Positions 1,567 through 11,525 of a DNA stretch of 12,139 nt are shown here, piece after piece. The stretch is taken from IMG/VR virus record IMGVR_UViG_2541047682_000010. One strand, 5' to 3'. Positions within the stretch are counted from its first letter, which is position 1; each line of letters begins with the position of its first letter. Origin of the DNA: a virus (lineage: Duplodnaviria > Heunggongvirae > Uroviricota > Caudoviricetes). The notes beneath the pieces are model-generated. The model did not search any database, was not told the origin of the DNA, and worked only from the letters and a program-made list of their open reading frames with translations. A program made the translations under genes and the position numbers.

Positions 1567-4500
1567 ATGGGTAAAGGCAGCAGTAAGGGGCATACCCCGC
1601 GCGAAGCGAAGGACAACCTGAAATCCACGCAGTTACTGAGTGTGATCGATGCCATCAGCGAAGGACCGATAGAAGGTCCGGTGGATGGATTAAAAAGCGT
1701 GCTGCTGAACAGTACGCCGGTGCTGGACAGTGAAGGGAATACCAACATCGCCGGTGTCACGGTGGTGTTCCGGGCAGGTGAGCAGGAGCAGACACCGCCG
1801 GAGGGATTTGAATCCTCCGGATCCGAGACGGTGCTGGGTACGGAAGTGAAATATGACACGCCGATCACCCGCACCATCACGTCGGCAAACATCGACCGTC
1901 TGCGCTTTACCTTCGGTGTGCAGGCACTGGTGGAAACCACCTCAAAGGGGGACAGGAATCCATCGGAAGTCCGCCTGCTGGTTCAGATACAACGTAACGG
2001 TGGCTGGGTGACGGAAAAAGACATCACCATTAAGGGCAAAACCACGTCGCAGTATCTGGCCTCGGTGGTGGTGGATAACCTGCCGCCGCGCCCGTTTAAT
2101 ATCCGGATGCGCAGGATGACGCCGGACAGCACCACAGACCAGCTGCAGAACAAAACGCTCTGGTCGTCATACACCGAAATCATCGATGTGAAACAGTGCT
2201 ACCCGAACACGGCACTGGTCGGCGTGCAGGTGGACTCGGAACAGTTCGGCAGCCAGCAGGTGAGTCGTAATTATCATCTTCGCGGGCGCATTCTGCAGGT
2301 GCCGTCGAACTATAACCCGCAGAGGCGGCAATACAGCGGTATCTGGGACGGAACGTTTAAACCGGCATACAGCAACAACATGGCATGGTGTCTGTGGGAT
2401 ATGCTGACCCATCCGCGCTACGGCATGGGGAAACGTCTTGGTGCGGCGGATGTGGACAAATGGGCGCTGTATGTCATCGGACAGTATTGCGACCAGTCGG
2501 TGCCGGATGGTTTTGGTGGCACGGAGCCGCGCATCACCTGTAATGCGTACCTGACCACACAGCGCAAGGCGTGGGATGTGCTCAGTGATTTCTGCTCGGC
2601 GATGCGCTGTATGCCGGTATGGAACGGGCAGACGCTGACGTTCGTGCAGGACCGACCGTCGGATAAGGTGTGGACCTATAACCGCAGTAATGTGGTGATG
2701 CCGGATGATGGCGCGCCGTTCCGCTACAGCTTCAGCGCCCTGAAGGACCGCCATAATGCCGTTGAGGTGAACTGGATTGACCCGGATAACGGCTGGGAGA
2801 CGGCGACAGAGCTTGTTGAAGATACGCAGGCCATTCTCCGTTACGGTCGTAACGTCACGAAGATGGATGCCTTTGGCTGTACCAGTCGGGGGCAGGCACA
2901 CCGCGCCGGGCTGTGGCTGATTAAAACGGAGCTGCTGGAAACGCAGACCGTGGACTTCAGCGTGGGTGCTGAAGGGCTTCGCCATGTACCGGGCGATGTC
3001 ATTGAAATCTGCGATGATGACTATGCCGGTATCAGCACCGGCGGGCGAGTGCTGGCGGTGAACAGCCAGACCCGGACGCTGACGCTCGACCGTGAAATCA
3101 CGCTGCCATCCTCCGGTACCACGCTGATAAGCCTGGTTGACGGAAGTGGCAATCCGGTCAGCGTGGAGGTTCAGTCCGTCACCGACGGCGTGAAGGTAAA
3201 AGTGAGCCGTGTTCCTGACGGTGTTGCTGAATACAGCGTATGGGGGCTGAAGCTGCCGACGCTGCGCCAGCGACTGTTCCGCTGCGTGAGTATCCGTGAG
3301 AACGACGACGGCACGTATGCCATCACCGCCGTGCAGCATGTGCCGGAAAAAGAGGCCATCGTGGATAACGGAGCGCACTTTGACGGCGACCAGAGCGGCA
3401 CGGTGAATGGTGTCACGCCGCCAGCGGTGCAGCACCTGACCGCCGAAGTCACCGCAGACAGCGGGGAATATCAGGTGCTGGCGCGCTGGGACACGCCGAA
3501 GGTGGTGAAGGGCGTGAGCTTCCTGCTCCGTCTGACCGTAACAGCGGATGACGGCAGTGAGCGGCTGGTCAGCACGGCCCGGACGGCGGAAACCACTTAC
3601 CGCTTCAGGCAGCTGGCGCTGGGGCGTTACACGCTGACGGTCCGGGCGGTAAATGCCCGGGGACAGCAGGGCGATCCGGCGTCGGTATCGTTCCGGATTG
3701 CCGCACCGGCAGCGCCGTCTCGGATTGAGCTGACACCGGGCTATTTTCAGATAACCGCCACGCCACATCTTGCGGTTTATGACCCGACGGTACAGTTTGA
3801 GTTCTGGTTCTCGGAAAAACGGATTGCGGATATCAGGCAGGTTGAAACCACAGCCCGCTATCTTGGCACGGCGCTGTACTGGATAGCTGCCAGTATCAAT
3901 ATCAGGCCGGGCCATGATTATTATTTTTACGTTCGCAGTGTGAACACCGTTGGCAAATCGGCATTCGTGGAGGCTGTTGGTCGGGCGAGCGATGATGCGG
4001 AAGGTTACCTGGATTTTTTCAAAGGCCAGATAACCGAATCCCATCTTGGCAAGGAGCTGCTGGAAAAAGTCGAGCTGACGGAGGATAACGCCAGCAAACT
4101 GGAGGAGTTTTCGAAAGAGTGGAAGGACGCCAGTGATAAGTGGAATGCCATGTGGGGCGTCAAAATTGAGCAGACCAAAGACGGCAAACATTATGTCGCG
4201 GGTATTGGCCTCAGCATGGAGGACACGGAGGAAGGCAAACTGAGCCAGTTCCTGGTTGCCGCTAACCGTATCGCGTTTATTGATCCGTCTAATGGCAACA
4301 CAAGACCAATGTTTGTTGGTCAGGGCGATCAGATATTCATGAACGACGTGTTCCTGAAACGCCTGACGGCTCCGACCATTACCAGCGGCGGTAATCCTCC
4401 GGCATTTTCCCTGACACCGGATGGGCGGCTGACGGCGAAAAATGCCGATATCAGCGGTAACGTGAATGCGAACTCCGGGACGCTCAACAACGTCACGATT

Positions 4501-4962
4501 AACGAGAACTGTCGGGTTCTGGGAAAACTGTCCGCGAACCAGATTGAAGGCGATCTCGTTAAAACAGTGGGCAAAGCTTTCCCCCGGGACTCCCGTGCAC
4601 CGGAACGGTGGCCATCAGGGACCATTACCGTCAGGGTTTATGACGATCAGCCGTTTGACCGGCAGATTGTTATTCCTGCGGTGGCATTCAGCGGCGCTAA
4701 ACATGAGAGAGAGCATACTGATATTTACTCCTCATGCCGTCTGATAGTGCGGAAAAACGGTGCTGAAATTTATAACCGTACCGCGCTGGATAATACGCTG
4801 ATTTACAGTGGCGTTATTGATATGCCTGCCGGTCACGGTCACATGACGCTGGAGTTTTCGGTGTCAGCATGGCTGGTAAATGACTGGTATCCCACAGCAA
4901 GTATCAGCGATTTGCTGGTTGTGGTGATGAAGAAAGCCACCGCAGGCATCAGTATCAGCTGA
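1567..4962 (+). CDS. J: Central tail fibre / host specificity protein J (1131 aa)
   Basis: Single long ORF with GGAG 8 nt upstream of the ATG. The N-terminus [54 protein letters not shown] matches my recollection of lambda gpJ, and the length is close to lambda J (1132 aa). Confidence 0.95.
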
Positions 4963-5029: not shown

Positions 5030-5629
5030 ATGCGTAAAGTTTGTGCAGCCATTTTGTCCGCAGCCATTTGTCTGGCCGTATCCGGTGCGCCTGCATGGGC
5101 GTCTGAACATCAGTCCACGCTGAGCGCGGGGTATCTTCATGCCTCGACGAACGTCCCCGGCAGTGATGATCTGAACGGGATTAACGTGAAATACCGTTAT
5201 GAGTTTACGGACACACTGGGGCTGGTGACGTCATTCAGCTATGCAGGAGACAAGAATCGCCAGCTGACCCGTTACAGCGATACCCGCTGGCATGAAGATT
5301 CCGTTCGTAACCGCTGGTTCAGCGTAATGGCGGGGCCGTCTGTGCGCGTGAATGAATGGTTCAGCGCGTATGCGATGGCGGGTGTGGCTTACAGCCGTGT
5401 GTCGACTTTCTCCGGGGATTATCTTCGCGTAACTGACAACAAGGGGAAAAAGCACGATGTGCTGACCGGAAGTGATGACGGTCGCCACAGCAACACGTCT
5501 CTGGCGTGGGGGGCTGGCGTGCAGTTTAACCCGACCGAATCCGTGGCCATTGATATTGCTTATGAAGGCTCCGGCAGTGGCGACTGGCGCACTGACGGTT
5601 TCATCGTGGGTGTCGGTTATAAGTTCTGA
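5030..5629 (+). CDS. lom: Lom, Ail/Lom-family outer-membrane beta-barrel protein (lysogenic-conversion moron)
   Basis: 199-aa ORF with an N-terminal signal peptide (MRKVCAAILSAAICLAVSGAPAWA) and a C-terminal aromatic residue (ends GVGYKF), typical of OM beta-barrels. It sits after J as in lambda, with GAGAGG 6 nt upstream of the ATG. Confidence 0.9.
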   Translation: MRKVCAAILSAAICLAVSGAPAWASEHQSTLSAGYLHASTNVPGSDDLNGINVKYRYEFTDTLGLVTSFSYAGDKNRQLTRYSDTRWHEDSVRNRWFSVMAGPSVRVNEWFSAYAMAGVAYSRVSTFSGDYLRVTDNKGKKHDVLTGSDDGRHSNTSLAWGAGVQFNPTESVAIDIAYEGSGSGDWRTDGFIVGVGYKF

Positions 5630-5682: not shown

Positions 5683-6242
5683 GTGGAGTGGATATGGCAG
5701 CAGTAAAAATCTCAGGTGTGCTGAAAGATGGTGCGGGAAAACCAATACAGAACTGCACTATTCAACTGAAGGCAAAGCGTAACAGCACCACGGTACTGGT
5801 GAACACGGTGGCCTCTGAAAATCCGGATGAAGCCGGGCGTTACAGCATGGATGTTGAGTATGGTCAGTACAGCGTCACCCTGCTGGTTGAAGGTTTTCCG
5901 CCTTCACATGCCGGGACCATTACCGTCTATGAAGGTTCCAGACCAGGTACGCTGAATGATTTTCTCGGTGCCATGACGGAAGATGATGTCATGCCGGAGG
6001 CATTGCGTCGTTTTGAGGCAATGGTGGAAGAAGCGGCACGCAACGCCGAAGCCGCCTCTCAGAGCGCAGCAGCGGCAAAGAAATCCGAAACTGCAGCGGC
6101 ATCATCGAAGAACGCGGCGAAAACCTCAGAAACAAATGCAGCTAACAGCGCACAGGCGGCAGCGTCCTCGCAGACTGCATCGGCAAACTCCGCGACAGCA
6201 GCCAAAAAATCAGAAACCAACGCGAAAAATAGCGAGACAGCC

Positions 6243-6382
6243 GCAAAGACGAGCGAAACCAACGCAAAGTCCAGCCAGACGGCAGCGAAAACAAGCGAAA
6301 CGAATGCCAAAGCCAGTGAAACTGCGGCAAAAAACAGCCAGGTTGCAGCAGCCCAAAGCGAGAGCGCGGCAGCCGGTTCTGC
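6243..6382 (+). repeat. Direct repeat copy 1 (about 140 bp) inside the stf shaft coding region
   Basis: Near-identical to 6432-6571, offset 189 bp (63 codons). Encodes AKTSETNAKSSQTAAKTSETNAKASETAAKNSQ.AAAQSESAAAGS. Confidence 0.75.
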
Positions 6383-6431
6383 GACTTCAGCAGCTGGATC
6401 AGCAACTGCTGCGGCTAACAGCCAGAAAGCT

Positions 6432-6571
6432 GCGAAGACGAGTGAAACTAACGCAAAGTCCAGCCAGACGGCAGCGAAGACCAGCGAAACGAATGCCAAA
6501 GCCAGCGAAACTGCGGCGAAAAACAGTCAGGATGCAGCAGCCCAAAGCGAGAGTGCTGCAGCTGGTTCTGC
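6432..6571 (+). repeat. Direct repeat copy 2 (about 140 bp) inside the stf shaft coding region
   Basis: Near-identical to 6243-6382; same reading frame and same peptide repeat. Confidence 0.75.
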
Positions 6572-7227
6572 AAGCGCGGCGGCTGCTTCTGCCACTGCAT
6601 CAGCCAACAGTCAAAAAGCAGCAAAAACCAGTGAAACCAATGCAAAGACAAGCGAGACTGCAGCGGCGAACTCGGCGAAAGCATCCGCTGCAAGCCAGAC
6701 CGCTGCAAAAGCAAGTGAAGACGCAGCCAGAGAGTATGCAAGCCAGGCAGCAGATCCGTATAAATATGTCTTACAGCCGCTGCCTGATGTGTGGATACCG
6801 TTTAACGATTCACTGGATATGATTACGGGCTTTTTGCCATCATATAAAAAGATTGTTATTGGTGACGACGAAATAACGATGCCTGGCGACAAGATTGTTA
6901 AGTTTAAACGTGCATCGAAAGCAACCTATATTAACAAATCTGGTGTGCTGACAGAGGCTGCCATTGATGAGCCACGATTTGAACGTGATGGCCTGCTTAT
7001 TGAGGGGCAAAGAACTAATCTTCTGCTTAATTCAACAAATCCATCTAAATGGAATAAGTCAGGCAATCTGGAACTCACAGAAATATCCACGGATTCTTTT
7101 AATTTTACTTATGGGAGATTTACTGTAAAAGATACTCTTATTGGTCAGACAAGTGCTATTAATATCGTAACGATTTCTGGCAGTAAAGGGTTTGATGTCA
7201 CAGGTGATGAAAAATATGTGACCATTT

Positions 7228-7232
7228 CATGC
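7228..7232. repeat. IS2 target-site duplication, left copy (CATGC)
   Basis: Identical 5-mer immediately flanks both IS2 termini. IS2 is known to make 5-bp duplications. Confidence 0.85.
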
Positions 7233-7243
7233 TGGATTTGCCC

Positions 7244-8149
7244 CTATATTTCCAGACACCTGTTATCACTTAACCCATTACTGGCTTGCTGCCGCAGATA
7301 TTCCCGTGGCGAGCGATAACCCAGTGCACTATGCGGATGCCATTCGTTATAATGCTCGAACGCCTCTGCAAGGTTCTTTGCTGCCGTTAACCCGTCTGGT
7401 TTGGGCATGACACTGATGTAGTCACGCTTTATCGTTTTCACGAAGCTCTCTGCTATGCCGTTACTCTCCGGACTCCGCACCGCCGTGCTCTTCGGTTCAA
7501 GCCCCAACATCCGGGCAAACTGCCGTGTTTCATTAGCCCGGTAGCATGAACCATTATCCGTCAGCCACTCTACTGGAGACGCCGGAAGCTCGTTGCCGAA
7601 GCGGCGTTCCACCGCTCCCAGCATGACGTCCTGTACTGTTTCACTGTTGAAGCCGCCCGTAGTGACCGCCCAGTGCAGTGCCTCACGGTCACAGCAGTCC
7701 AGCGCGAACGTGACTCGCAGTTTTTCTCCGTTATCACAGCGGAACTCGAACCCGTCAGAGCACCATCGCTGATTACTTTCTTTCACAGCCACTCTGCCTG
7801 TATGTGCCCGTTTCGATGGCGGTACAGCAGGTTTTCGCTCAAGCAACAGCGCATTCTGGCGCATGATCCGGTAAACACGTTTGGCATTGATCGCAGGCAT
7901 ACCATCAAGTTCTGCCTGTCTGCGAAGCAGCGCCCATACCCGACGATAACCATACGTGGGCAGCTCTCCGATAACATGGTGTATACGGAGAAGCACATCC
8001 GTATCATCAGTGTGACGACTGCGGCGGCCATCCATCCAGTCATCGGTTCGTCTGAGAATGACGTGCAACTGCGCACGCGACACCCGGAGACAACGGCTGA
8101 CTAAGCTTACTCCCCATCCCCGGGCAATAAGGGCGCGTGCGCTATCCAC
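7244..8149 (-). CDS. insD: IS2 transposase OrfB (InsD; DDE integrase-like catalytic domain), 301 aa
   Basis: Translation [23 protein letters not shown]...[12 protein letters not shown] is recognised as IS2 InsD. It overlaps insC by 43 nt, where an A6G slippery run (CAAAAAAG on the - strand, about 8149-8156) is the known site of programmed -1 frameshifting that produces the OrfAB transposase. Confidence 0.9.
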
Positions 8150-8472
8150 TTTTTTGCCCGTCCATATTCAACGGCTTCTTTGAGGAGTTCATTTTCCATC
8201 GTTTTCTTGCCGAGCAGGCGCTGGAGTTCTTTAATCTGCTTCATGGCGGCAGCAAGTTCAGAGGCAGGAACAACCTGTTCTCCGGCGGCGACAGCAGTAA
8301 GACTTCCTTCCTGGTATTGCTTACGCCAGAGAAATAACTGGCTGGCTGCCACACCGTGTTGCCGGGCAACGAGGGAGACCGTCATCCCTGGTTCAAAGCT
8401 CTGCTGAACAATTGCGATCTTTTCCTGTGTGGTACGCCGTCTGCGTTTCTCCGGTCCTAAGACATCAATCAT
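8107..8472 (-). CDS. insC: IS2 OrfA (InsC; helix-turn-helix regulator and transposase N-terminal part), 121 aa
   Basis: Translation [56 protein letters not shown]... is recognised as IS2 InsC. The ORF track gives an extended 136-aa frame from 8517; the canonical start is the internal Met. Confidence 0.9.
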
Positions 8473-8563
8473 CTGCTCTCCAATGACTAGTCTAAAAACT
8501 AGTATTAAGACTATCACTTAAATAAGTGATATTGGTTGTCTGGAGATTCAGGGGGCCAGTCTA

Positions 8564-8568
8564 CATGC
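8564..8568. repeat. IS2 target-site duplication, right copy (CATGC)
   Basis: Identical to 7228-7232. Confidence 0.85.
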
Positions 8569-9407
8569 CGTGTAAGAAGTGATGTTGAAAATATAAGGTG
8601 TCGTTTAAGATTTGAACACCATGATGGTTATACTTACACTTTTTTGGGAGATGCTTACCTCAATTTATCAACACTTGTAATTGATAAAACTGGTACTGCT
8701 GCAGACCGTATTATTGCAAAGGCTGTAAAAGATGAGGTTACTGGTTGGATTTTCTATCAGGCTACAATTAATGCACTAGATACAGAGAGCATGATTGGTG
8801 CGATGGTTCAATACGCTCCTGTAAAAGGTTCAGGTACAGCATCTGGAGACTATCTGGATATCGCAACTCCACAAGTGGAAGGTGGATCAAGTGCTTCGTC
8901 ATTTATTGTAACTGATATAACTGCAAGCACTCGCGCAAGCGATATGGTGACAGTCCCAATCAAGAATAACCTTTATAATCTTCCTTTTACGGTTCTTTGT
9001 GAGGTACATAAGAACTGGTATAAAACGCCAAATGCAGCACCGCGTGTTTTTGATACCGGCGGTCATCAAACCGGAGCGGCTATTATTCTTGGCTTCGGTC
9101 GTTCAACAGATTACGACGGATTTCCTTATTGTGATATAGGTTTGGCTAACAGACGGGTAAACGAAAACGCATCGCTTGAAAAAATGGTTATGGGGATGCG
9201 TGTAAAGTCAGATCAGTCTACGTGCTCAGTAAGTAACGGGCGTATATCCAGCGAAAAGAAAGCCACATGGTCCTATATTCAGAACTCCGCAATTATCCGT
9301 ATTGGAGGCCAGACTACAGCCGGGTTGCGTCATTTATTTGGTCATGTCAGGAATTTCAGAATATGGCACAAGGCATTGACTGATGCTCAGATGGGGGAGT
9401 CAATCTA

Positions 9408-9689
9408 ATGAAAGATTTAACACTCAAATTTGCAGACAGGGCCGACTTTTCGGCCTTTATGGATAGCATTGGCTATTATGATGACGAGTCGATGCAGGAT
9501 GATATTCTTATTGACGTGATAGGTAACGTGTACAAAGAAACCGGAGAACTGACTGAAGATGGCGAACCGGTATGTGTTAAGGAAGATGGATATTTTGTAA
9601 ACGTGCGCATCATTAATGATGCAAAAAAATCGTTAATATTCGATGAATACGCGGTTGTAGTTGAACATCAACTTCGTGGCTGGATGTGA
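9408..9689 (+). CDS. Hypothetical small acidic protein (93 aa), translationally coupled to stf
   Basis: The ATG overlaps the stf stop (TAATG). GGGGAG lies 9 nt upstream. Low G+C like the distal stf domain. Asp/Glu-rich. No family recognised. Confidence 0.6.
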   Translation: MKDLTLKFADRADFSAFMDSIGYYDDESMQDDILIDVIGNVYKETGELTEDGEPVCVKEDGYFVNVRIINDAKKSLIFDEYAVVVEHQLRGWM

Positions 9690-9698
9690 GGGAGACAA

Positions 9699-10403
9699 AT
9701 GGCTACATCGACAGTAATTCCAGGAGACATCACCACGTTAAAGGGAGATGTCAGTAAAGCCAAGGAAGATATTTCCTCAATTAACGGAAAAGTATCAACG
9801 CTTCAGGCTGATATGACCAGTGCAAAGCAGGATATCAGCACCAGATACACAAAAACTGAAGTTGATAATAAGCTGAAAAACAAACTGGAAGTGAACGCTC
9901 TGGAAAGCGGTCGTTATGGTGGAGATTTTTACCCGTTGACTGGCCGTGAAGCGTTTTATTTGTGGGGATTGGGCACGACTACAGCGGCGGCAAACCTTTA
10001 TCTTAATCCTGACCCCGCAATTTCGTCTGTGCTGCGGTCAACATCGTCTATCCGCTATAAACATTCAGTAGAGACAATAGATTCAGAGCACGCCGATCTC
10101 ATTTTCAGGATGCGCCCTGTGTGGTACAGGTCACAATGCGAAAATGACAGGCGTGACTGGGGATTCTACGGATTGATTGCCGAGGAAGTAGGAGAAATTG
10201 CCCCTCAGTTTGTACACTGGCGACCAGCTAACGAAGATGATGCACCGGAAGCTATTTCCAGCAATGGCCTTGTTGCCGAAGGTGTAATGTACGAACGTCT
10301 GGTTGTTCCACTGATTCACCATATCCAGAAGCTGACTGAAAGAGTTGATGAACTTGAGTCAGAATTAAAGTTGTTATCCGTTTCCCGAAGCGATATCGGA
10401 TAA
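9699..10403 (+). CDS. Tail-fibre-related protein with a coiled-coil N-terminus and a C-terminal peptidase-S74-like intramolecular-chaperone domain (234 aa)
   Basis: GGGAG lies 6 nt before the ATG. The C-terminal 120 residues carry the characteristic S74 pattern: SSIRYKHSVETID (compare SDxRxKxNI), then RPVWYR, then GLIAEEVGEIAPQFV, then MYERLVVPLIHHIQKLTERVDELESEL. The N-terminus has heptad-like repeats (DITTLKGDVSKAKEDISSINGKVSTLQADMTSAKQDIS). Confidence 0.75.
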   Translation: MATSTVIPGDITTLKGDVSKAKEDISSINGKVSTLQADMTSAKQDISTRYTKTEVDNKLKNKLEVNALESGRYGGDFYPLTGREAFYLWGLGTTTAAANLYLNPDPAISSVLRSTSSIRYKHSVETIDSEHADLIFRMRPVWYRSQCENDRRDWGFYGLIAEEVGEIAPQFVHWRPANEDDAPEAISSNGLVAEGVMYERLVVPLIHHIQKLTERVDELESELKLLSVSRSDIG

Positions 10404-10413
10404 AGGAGGAGTA

Positions 10414-10707
10414 ATGGATATAACACCTTTCCTTCATGCGCTTTGTGCTGTGGCTGCGCAGCTACTGATTGGTCTTTTTACCGGGAACTGGGCTTACGGG
10501 GCGATAGCTGGTTGTACGTTCTTCATTGCGCGTGAACACACCCAGGCAGAATATCGCTGGATTGAAATGTTCGGGCATGGCAAGCGAATGAATATGCCGT
10601 GGTGGGGCGGTTTTGATCCGCGCGCGTGGGATGTGGCAAGCCTGATGGATTTTGCTGTGCCGGTGGTGGCGTGTCTGCTGGTCTGGCTGTTGGTTAATCG
10701 TGGGTGA
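10414..10707 (+). CDS. Hypothetical small membrane protein (97 aa, two to three predicted transmembrane segments)
   Basis: Strong RBS AAGGAGG 7 nt before the ATG. Hydrophobic stretches FLHALCAVAAQLLIGLF, AYGAIAGCTFFIA and FAVPVVACLLVWLLV. G+C is similar to the phage backbone, not the low-GC cassette. Confidence 0.55.
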   Translation: MDITPFLHALCAVAAQLLIGLFTGNWAYGAIAGCTFFIAREHTQAEYRWIEMFGHGKRMNMPWWGGFDPRAWDVASLMDFAVPVVACLLVWLLVNRG

Positions 10708-10717
10708 AAAAAGGTGA

Positions 10718-10837
10718 GCTGTATATGCAACGGAGGAAGAAACCTCGTTGCTGGAAGCCTGGAAGAAGTATCGGGTGTTGCTGAACCGTGTTGATACGTC
10801 AACTGCACAGGATATTGAATGGCCAGCACTGCCGTAG
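10718..10837 (+). pseudogene. tfa: 3' remnant (39 codons) of the tail fibre assembly gene tfa
   Basis: The frame opens right after a TGA at 10715-10717 and reads [39 protein letters not shown]-stop. This matches the conserved C-terminus of lambda-type Tfa as I recall it (..[30 protein letters not shown]..). There is no start codon and no N-terminal Tfa domain. Confidence 0.7.
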
Positions 10838-10934: not shown

Positions 10935-11525
10935 TTATATGTCAGGTGTCTGAAGTTTTGCTTTGGCTCTTAAAATGGTTTGCCGCGAGGTTTTGAATTC
11001 CCGGGCAATGGCACTTATACTTACACCTGACTTAATTCGTTCGAATACCACCTGTTTCTGTTCTTCATTTAACACAGGTGGTCGACCAAAACGTTTCCCT
11101 GCGCCCCGGGCTCTTACTATCCCGGAATGAGTGCGTTCAAGTAAAAGGTCTCGTTCAAATTCAGCGACTGCTGAAATTACTTGCATCATCATTTTCCCTG
11201 TTGGACTGGTCAGGTCAATGCCCCCCAATGCTAAGCAATGCACTCTGATACCTGTTTCGGTCAGTTGTTCCACTGTTTTCCTGATATCCATTGCATTACA
11301 ACCAAGGCGATCCAGTTTTGTCACAATCAATTGATCACCACATTTCAGACGAGCAAGCAACCGGTTAAAACCAGGACGCTCACTGGTTGCTGCTGAGCCG
11401 CTAATGTGTTCTTCGATTATTTGCTGAGGTTTGATTTTAAAACCTGCACTTTCGATTTCCCGGCGTTGATTTTCGGTGGTCTGATCCAGCGTTGATATCC
11501 GACAGTAAGCAAAAATTCGAGACAT
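10935..11525 (-). CDS. pin: Serine recombinase (resolvase/invertase family, PinR/PinQ-like), 196 aa
   Basis: N-terminal catalytic motif YCRISTLDQ with the nucleophilic Ser, and a C-terminal helix-turn-helix ([20 protein letters not shown]). The sequence matches my recollection of the E. coli prophage PinR/PinQ proteins. Position next to tfa is as in Rac and Qin. Confidence 0.9.

Follow-up and report, generated by a model that had tools for sequence, protein, structure and literature searches.

A short S74-terminated gene of a lambdoid Escherichia coli prophage as a candidate for the most reduced distal subunit of a two-part lateral tail fibre

The window analysed here, a stretch of 12,139 nucleotides of caudoviral DNA (IMG/VR record IMGVR_UViG_2541047682_000010), carries at positions 9,699 to 10,403 of its plus strand an open reading frame (ORF) of 234 codons plus a stop codon. 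We consider it probable, with moderate confidence, that the encoded protein is the second, distal component of a lateral (side) tail fibre built from two proteins, and that it represents the most reduced natural form of such a component. The protein ends in a peptidase S74-type intramolecular chaperone domain that opens with a conserved Ser-Lys dyad, it is homologous to the ends of long side tail fibres (Stf), its gene is under purifying selection, and the presence of the gene is independent of the type of Stf head encoded upstream. Because its N-terminus and gene slot are those of distal fibres of the Gp24 type, we regard the gene as the shortest allele of the distal-fibre slot.

Results

Genomic setting of the short S74 gene

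The window comes from the tail end of a lambdoid E. coli prophage. Positions 9,300 to 10,800, which surround the short gene, are 100% identical to the prophage that adjoins prfC in the genomes of S88 and APEC O1, and the entire window is 98-99.6% identical to the S88 locus. Behind J (1,567-4,962) and lom (5,030-5,629) lies the 5′ part of stf, the gene for the proximal side tail fibre (5,694-7,232, plus strand). This part, in which a phage_tail_N domain and a coiled coil rich in Ala are encoded, breaks off at an IS2 element of 1,331 bp (7,233-8,563, minus strand), whose InsC/InsD ORFs lie on the minus strand (7,244-8,149 and 8,107-8,517). The 3′ part of stf (8,564-9,408, plus strand) encodes the head, whose C-terminal end is of the type HLFGHVRNFRIWHKALTD, and has no S74 domain. 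The insertion sits at approximately codon 513 of the 792-residue Stf of S88, and the coordinates of the S88 stf gene overlap by 5 bp across the IS2 junction, indicating a target-site duplication. As read from the sequence, IS2 has inactivated the prophage's gene for the side tail fibre. The cassette genes downstream of the interruption are intact; given the broken stf, the fibre cassette is probably disabled in this window. Within the part of stf that encodes the Ala-rich shaft, with its SETNAK-type repeats, we also observed an internal direct duplication of approximately 250 bp at 83% identity (6,228-6,665).

An ORF of 93 codons (phrog_1361; 9,408-9,689, plus strand), the start of which overlaps the stf stop codon, separates stf from the short S74 gene. 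The original prediction, made from the DNA letters without database searches, had described the short gene as following directly after a fibre gene that itself lacks an S74 domain. The second half of this description holds, in that the intact S88 Stf yields no match to the S74 domain; the first half needs amending, since the conserved 93-residue ORF intervenes and the fibre gene is interrupted by IS2.

Downstream of the short gene lie an ORF for a 97-residue membrane protein (phrog_1443; 10,414-10,707), a tfa remnant (10,718-10,837) and a Pin-type recombinase gene (10,935-11,525, minus strand). The 97-residue protein has hydrophobic segments at both ends (approximately residues 1-27 and 71-97), and among the loci examined its ORF occurs only in lambdoid phages and prophages, right behind the fibre cassette, whether or not an S74 gene is present; the protein may be a moron or an exclusion protein. 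The tfa remnant corresponds to the C-terminal part of a Tfa-type assembly protein and adjoins the recombinase gene, which is intact and of the Pin/Gin serine type. No inverted repeats of at least 16 nt were found between stf and this gene, and the remnant and the recombinase together look like the relic of an invertible tail-fibre segment that was displaced by the present cassette.

Start site, S74 domain and catalytic dyad

The ATG of the short gene at position 9,699 is preceded, at a distance of 4 nt, by a GGGAG Shine-Dalgarno sequence that can be read directly from the DNA (9,690-9,694, plus strand), and 9 nt separate the TGA of the 93-residue ORF from this start. The reading frame is intact, its coordinates are those given in the original prediction, and the product is identical to that of strain S88; its RefSeq entry is WP_000235978.1, "tail fiber domain-containing protein".

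Residues 116-172 match the Pfam profile Peptidase_S74 (PF13884) with 27.3 bits (E = 4.4e-6), which exceeds the curated cut-off of 22 bits and bears out the S74 assignment that had been made from the letters alone. Taken together, the Pfam match, the profile search, the AF2 model and a fold match delimit an intramolecular chaperone domain of residues 116-234 (10,044-10,400, plus strand), which in the AF2 monomer ends with a long helix (residues 198-233). The domain opens with SSIRYK (residues 116-121; 10,044-10,061, plus strand), located by the Pfam match and by alignment with homologues, exactly where the candidate cleavage site had been placed. This hexapeptide holds a Ser and a Lys in S-x4-K spacing (S116/K121); S116, Y120 and K121 are invariant across an alignment of 25 homologues, some of which are just 31% identical to the protein studied here. 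Ser116 is thus the predicted nucleophile and the predicted first residue of the released domain, and Lys121 the predicted general base, roles that we take to correspond to those of Ser911 and Lys916 in K1F endoNF.

A profile built from the alignment of 25 homologues retrieves the chaperone domain of DT57C LtfA among PDB sequences (8hqz, E = 3.4e-4). In the AF2 monomer, residues 131-230 are predicted with moderate confidence (block-mean pLDDT 66-90), and residues 41-127 have pLDDT values below 50, such that the model is unreliable there and uninformative on the distal tip described below. The best fold match in the PDB to the C-terminal half, obtained with Foldseek, is the ICA domain of MyRF (7dc3, E = 5e-5, TM-score 0.57 on the query), followed by the intramolecular chaperones of GA-1 (3gud, probability 0.69) and then K1F (3gw6). 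No match to Tfa-type families was found with the profiles of Pfam or NCBIfam.

Anatomy of the predicted mature part

The protein begins with the motif MATSTVIPGDITTLK (residues 1-15; 9,699-9,743, plus strand), which is common to distal fibre proteins of 346, 351, 574 and 581 residues and is likely to serve as an attachment adaptor. It runs into an alpha-helical coiled-coil stalk (residues 11-65; 9,729-9,893, plus strand), recognised from its heptads and the AF2 model. Five clean heptads span residues 11-46, in which all a and d positions are occupied by I, L, V, A or M, and the shaft motif YTKTEVDNKL comes after them. The distal tip (residues 66-115; 9,894-10,043, plus strand), defined by alignment, is homologous to the last residues ahead of the chaperone domain in long Stf proteins. 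Between its N-terminus and its chaperone domain, the short protein has a coiled coil and a 41-residue tip and no receptor-binding body, in keeping with the mature part of about 115 residues that had been anticipated.

The two segments behave differently among homologues. All of the sequences measured (76/76) have the cleavage Ser at a distance of 41 residues from the G.FYPLT motif, whereas the distance from Met1 to G.FYPLT is 57, 60, 63, 64, 67, 71, 74, 78 or 99 residues. Within lineages, stalk length differs in steps of 7, 11 and 14 residues while the tip remains constant. In some short alleles (P0015 and P0009/P0010), the N-terminal unit IPxDITxLKxxVS... occurs twice, so the putative docking motif is itself a repeat built on heptads, and tandem copying of it can lengthen the stalk.

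A recurrent three-gene cassette with alternative distal genes

The original prediction had treated the short gene as a stand-alone S74 gene. It is instead the third gene of a recurrent cassette, in which a proximal lateral fibre gene with a phrog_1419-type head and no S74 domain is followed by a 92- to 93-residue ORF (phrog_1361), which begins in overlap with the stop codon of the fibre gene, and then by a distal gene that ends in S74. This order is present in lambdoid phages (Tritos and PhiR49_1, as well as the S88 prophage), in Drexlerviridae (swan01, PeterMerian and KarlJaspers), in Nonagvirus (ESCO3) and in Tequintavirus (FGS017, T5_ev219 and IrisVonRoten). The distal gene of the cassette always starts with MxTxTVIPxDITxLK, and the MxTxTVIP N-terminus is present in approximately 60 records of E. 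coli and Salmonella phages. Three size forms are observed, of 221-234, 346-351 and 573-581 residues, the first and shortest being the form found in the window. The intermediate form has a globular body (Tritos, ESCO3), and the body of the longest is 44% identical to residues 185-764 of LtfB from DT571/2.

At every IMG/VR locus with a 93-residue ORF of the window's type and with downstream sequence present (77/77), a gene of the MATSTVIP type starts 9 nt later; the complete distal genes at these loci comprise 46 of 227-234 residues, 23 of 346 residues and one of 299 residues. Loci with the 92-residue ORF of the ev243 type, on the other hand, lead straight to the 97-residue membrane ORF and have no S74 gene (45/45), and the phage isolates ev243, mEp460_4F5 and Lambda_2G7a show this same arrangement, likewise lacking a distal S74 gene. 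Within lambdoid prophages, the type of the 93-residue ORF and the presence of the distal gene are perfectly linked (77/77 versus 0/45). Across phage groups, the types of this ORF that occur with and without a distal gene form no clades, and the association within lambdoid prophages may represent plain genetic linkage as opposed to proof of an interaction. The 92- to 93-residue ORF is a member of a family in its own right, which is represented in 181 phage records and accompanies this type of fibre with or without a distal gene.

Sequence comparison revealed no feature of Stf or of the 93-residue protein whose occurrence follows that of the distal gene. One candidate docking marker, the Stf block 366-430, seemed better conserved where a distal gene is present but was rejected, as Lambda_2G7a, which has no distal gene, carries the conserved version over most of its length. 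We also note that the 93-residue ORF and the distal gene share a reading frame, one stop codon and 9-12 nt apart, in most loci (9,408-10,403 in the window; also L002, L003, L007, L008, L010, L140 and L142). In KarlJaspers (L009), the two lie in different frames, and a read-through fusion of the 93-residue ORF with the short protein was rejected on this ground; the same-frame layout elsewhere probably reflects spacing that was inherited, as opposed to a programmed read-through.

Relatives, distribution and selection

Searched exhaustively, a set of 1.8 billion representative proteins yielded 3633 relatives of the short protein. The best of these include long tail fibres of E. coli (539-1243 residues), one of which (P0065) starts with phage_tail_N, as Stf does. 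The last 190-200 residues of the long Stf fibres align with the short protein from approximately residue 25-50 to its C-terminus, at 50-59% identity. The short protein therefore corresponds, as far as the alignments tell, to the end-module of a single-chain Stf (coil, tip and chaperone domain) encoded as a gene of its own and provided with a putative docking N-terminus. A partial tail fibre of 588 residues (P0066) shares its C-terminal residues (...IHHIQKLTERVDELESELKLLSVSRSDIG) with the short protein and is approximately 58% identical to it over the rest, which suggests recent recombination within the chaperone domain between a single-chain Stf gene and the short gene. Other S74 proteins of fewer than 250 residues (P0090, P0091, P0135 and P0171) have unrelated N-terminal parts.

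The gene is under purifying selection over its whole length. In a set of 28 unique short alleles, the dN/dS ratio of the whole gene comes to 0.165; taken separately, the chaperone domain has a ratio of 0.12, the tip one of 0.15 and the mature part one of 0.21, and across these alleles there was no sign of diversifying selection. The short architecture is kept in approximately 40 lytic Drexlerviridae genomes, in which the whole protein is 55-61% identical to that of the window, and the tip aligns without gaps between the proteins of lambdoid prophages and those of T1-like lytic phages. A region that spans the gene is present, at a query coverage of at least 80%, in 720 of the 5426 complete E. 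coli genomes. This combination of purifying selection, retention in lytic phages and prevalence speaks against a decaying remnant.

The gene is thus widespread and already annotated, under names that are vague or misleading. A literature search found no study of the short protein, and no proteomic or genetic data on it; the virion proteomics of phage SH6 concerns another fibre, of the single-chain kind.

Discussion

A probable minimal distal fibre subunit

Members of the S74 family, such as K1F endoNF and T5 pb1, use their C-terminal domain to trimerise and to template the upstream chain, after which the domain cleaves itself off. By analogy, three chains of the short protein would be registered from the C-terminus by the intramolecular chaperone (residues 116-234), which would fold the 41-residue distal tip and zip a trimeric coiled coil of approximately 55 residues. 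Ser116 and Lys121 would then release the chaperone by cleavage after residue 115, leaving a trimeric stub of residues 1-115 with approximately 12 kDa per chain. The N-terminal motif MxTxTVIPxDITxLK would plug this stub into Stf, the proximal fibre, alone or together with the 93-residue protein, a mode of docking suggested by the shared N-terminus and by the published model of Gp22 and Gp24.

The short allele most likely serves to complete or cap the fibre as a generic end-piece, which would touch a conserved surface structure at most. The tip is short, conserved and non-diversifying, and a variable receptor-binding body is lacking, features that favour such an end-piece over a determinant of specificity; the short allele probably does not determine strain specificity. 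Two functions had originally been put forward for the gene. That of a miniature accessory fibre is in agreement with the gene slot, the N-terminal motif and the homology to the Stf end-module; that of a trans-acting chaperone in place of Tfa is at odds with the occurrence of Stf heads with a short, a long or no distal gene.

Alternative explanations

A related possibility, which we judge rather unlikely, is that the coil and the 41-residue tip form a receptor-binding accessory fibre that recognises a receptor of its own, for example a conserved structure of the LPS core or another glycan, and so confers a second specificity as LtfB does in DT57C. The short protein occupies a slot in which other alleles carry clear receptor-binding bodies, and its tip is also the most distal part of the long Stf proteins. 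In T5 pb1, the part just ahead of the chaperone domain binds the receptor. The constraint on the tip (dN/dS of 0.15) can be read in the same direction, in that a conserved tip could bind a conserved receptor. However, the tip amounts to merely about 45 residues per chain and is well conserved between lambdoid and T1-like phages, unlike the variable receptor-binding blocks at this locus, and neither diversifying selection nor, in the BASEL papers, any phenotype linked to the short protein was found. A more speculative proposal, to which we give rather little weight, is that the miniature fibre acts as an assembly clamp: trimerisation driven by the chaperone would be required, by way of the coiled coil and the docking motif, to lock the proximal fibre at its trimeric end or to stabilise that end, the short allele would be a "blank" free of specificity, and MxTxTVIP would be a universal plug for the exchange of distal fibres among four groups of siphoviruses. 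A distal subunit may stabilise the proximal one in much the way suggested by phage DT571/2, which lost all of its lateral fibres, and with them LtfA, when LtfB was knocked out (PMC4728585).

The same observation on DT571/2, where the distal subunit can matter for the stability of the proximal fibre, can also be cited for a trans-acting folding chaperone that serves the neighbouring Stf in place of Tfa, the function implied by the name given to the gene in GenBank records of BASEL phages, "putative lateral tail fiber chaperone". Although Stf has no S74 domain and the sole tfa of this locus is a remnant, we find this function improbable. When 107 Stf heads were clustered at 85% identity, one class of head occurred with the short allele at 5 loci, with a long allele at 6 and with no distal gene at 5, and another paired with long (9) as well as short (4) alleles; that the same head classes are found with short, long and no distal gene argues against a chaperone acting on Stf in trans. 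The heads encoded at the 45 ev243-type loci and in the three isolates, all of which have no distal gene, are mosaics of the same blocks as heads that occur with one, the middle block of mEp460_4F5 aligning closely with that of Tritos and that of 2G7a with that of KarlJaspers. The constant companion of this fibre type is the 93-residue ORF and not the short gene. Moreover, the self-cleavage dyad and the tip that precedes it are both conserved, as expected of a chaperone that acts on its own chain, and Tfa-type families gave no match. The short gene is still less credible as the functionless remainder, carried along in prophages, of a longer distal fibre gene that suffered a deletion, despite its lack of the body seen in the alleles of 346 and approximately 580 residues and the damage that IS2 has already done to the cassette in this window: selection acts across the entire gene, dozens of lytic Drexlerviridae keep the same architecture, and stalk length changes in discrete steps with a tip of invariant length. 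Finally, there is hardly any case for the view that a frameshift or a stop codon broke a longer fibre gene and left its 3′ end as the short gene; a frameshifted fragment was among the outcomes that the original prediction had named as ones to guard against. The best-matching PHROG profile is 1385 columns long, and the short protein aligns to columns 1147-1384 only, but the single-chain Stf proteins that carry the same C-terminal module explain the long profile. The frame shared by the 93-residue ORF and the short gene, with TGA and 9 nt between them, would fit a split gene too; it is countered by the different frames in KarlJaspers, by the short gene's own ribosome-binding site and ATG, by a start that is conserved in dozens of phage records, and by the independence of the upstream family, members of which also stand alone.

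Implications

If the short protein is indeed the distal subunit of a two-part fibre, its mature part of approximately 115 residues would be the smallest natural client of an S74 intramolecular chaperone, and the protein would be a handy subject for studying how S74 domains nucleate trimer folding and cut themselves off. The N-terminal motif, which lambdoid, T1-like, 9g-like and T5-like phages have in common, could then be used to graft receptor-binding domains onto side tail fibres in the engineering of host range. Annotations such as "chaperone of endosialidase" and "lateral tail fiber chaperone" are probably misleading for this common gene.

Comparison with known fibre systems

The short protein is best filed as a reduced form of a known kind, the S74-terminated distal subunit of a two-part lateral fibre. 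With the S74 chaperones of the K1F endosialidase, T5 pb1, GA-1 gp12 and the MyRF ICA domain it has in common the C-terminal position of the S74 domain, the Ser-x4-Lys dyad and the long C-terminal helix. Its client, however, comprises approximately 115 residues of coil and 41-residue tip, whereas theirs range from several hundred to more than a thousand residues, and its cleavage is a prediction. Single-chain Stf proteins of E. coli prophages, such as P0065 (735 residues), have a YTKTEV coil, a tip and a chaperone domain like those of the short protein, at the identity noted above; in these, the module is fused to a shaft and receptor-binding repeats in one chain, whereas in the present case a gene of its own encodes it, together with a putative docking N-terminus.

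Small genes downstream of a side tail fibre gene are also known from the Stf-Tfa pair of lambda, S-U of Mu and H-G of P2, in each of which the fibre is accompanied by a separate assembly chaperone, and in the present locus a tfa remnant and a Pin-type invertase gene lie just downstream. The short protein nevertheless has no sequence or family match to Tfa-type proteins, and the evidence points to a structural subunit and not to a chaperone.

Closer parallels are found among fibres composed of two gene products. T5-like phages DT57C and DT571/2 have a branched lateral tail fibre made of LtfA and LtfB (PMC4728585, PMC10713586), in which LtfB is a second receptor-binding subunit carried by LtfA, with genetic evidence of O-antigen binding in DT571/2 (PMC4728585). 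This fibre likewise consists of the products of two genes, the second of which ends in S74 and is borne by the first. There are differences, however: the N-terminus of LtfB (MSRNLMPK...) is unlike that of the short protein, LtfA carries an S74 domain of its own, no 93-residue ORF lies between ltfA and ltfB, and the short protein has no LtfB-like body. When LtfB of the DT57C type (phrog_6921) is compared with the short protein, the chaperone domain alone aligns, at 26% identity, and the phiEco32 gp15-like N-terminal region and the body are absent. The closest counterpart is the Gp22-Gp23-Gp24 set of phage IrisVonRoten, which represents the same cassette. Gp22 is 56% identical to residues 113-792 of the S88 Stf, Gp23 is 38% identical to the 93-residue ORF product, and Gp24 starts with MVTKTVIPTDITKLK, an N-terminus like that of the short protein's family, and ends in S74. 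Gp24 has been modelled, though not demonstrated, as a distal fibre attached to the proximal Gp22, the latter having a galectin-like domain (PMC11990801, BASEL 2025). Whereas Gp24 is a T-shaped fibre of 574 residues with two receptor-binding domains, the short protein has none and would provide the same slot with a stalk and a tip only.
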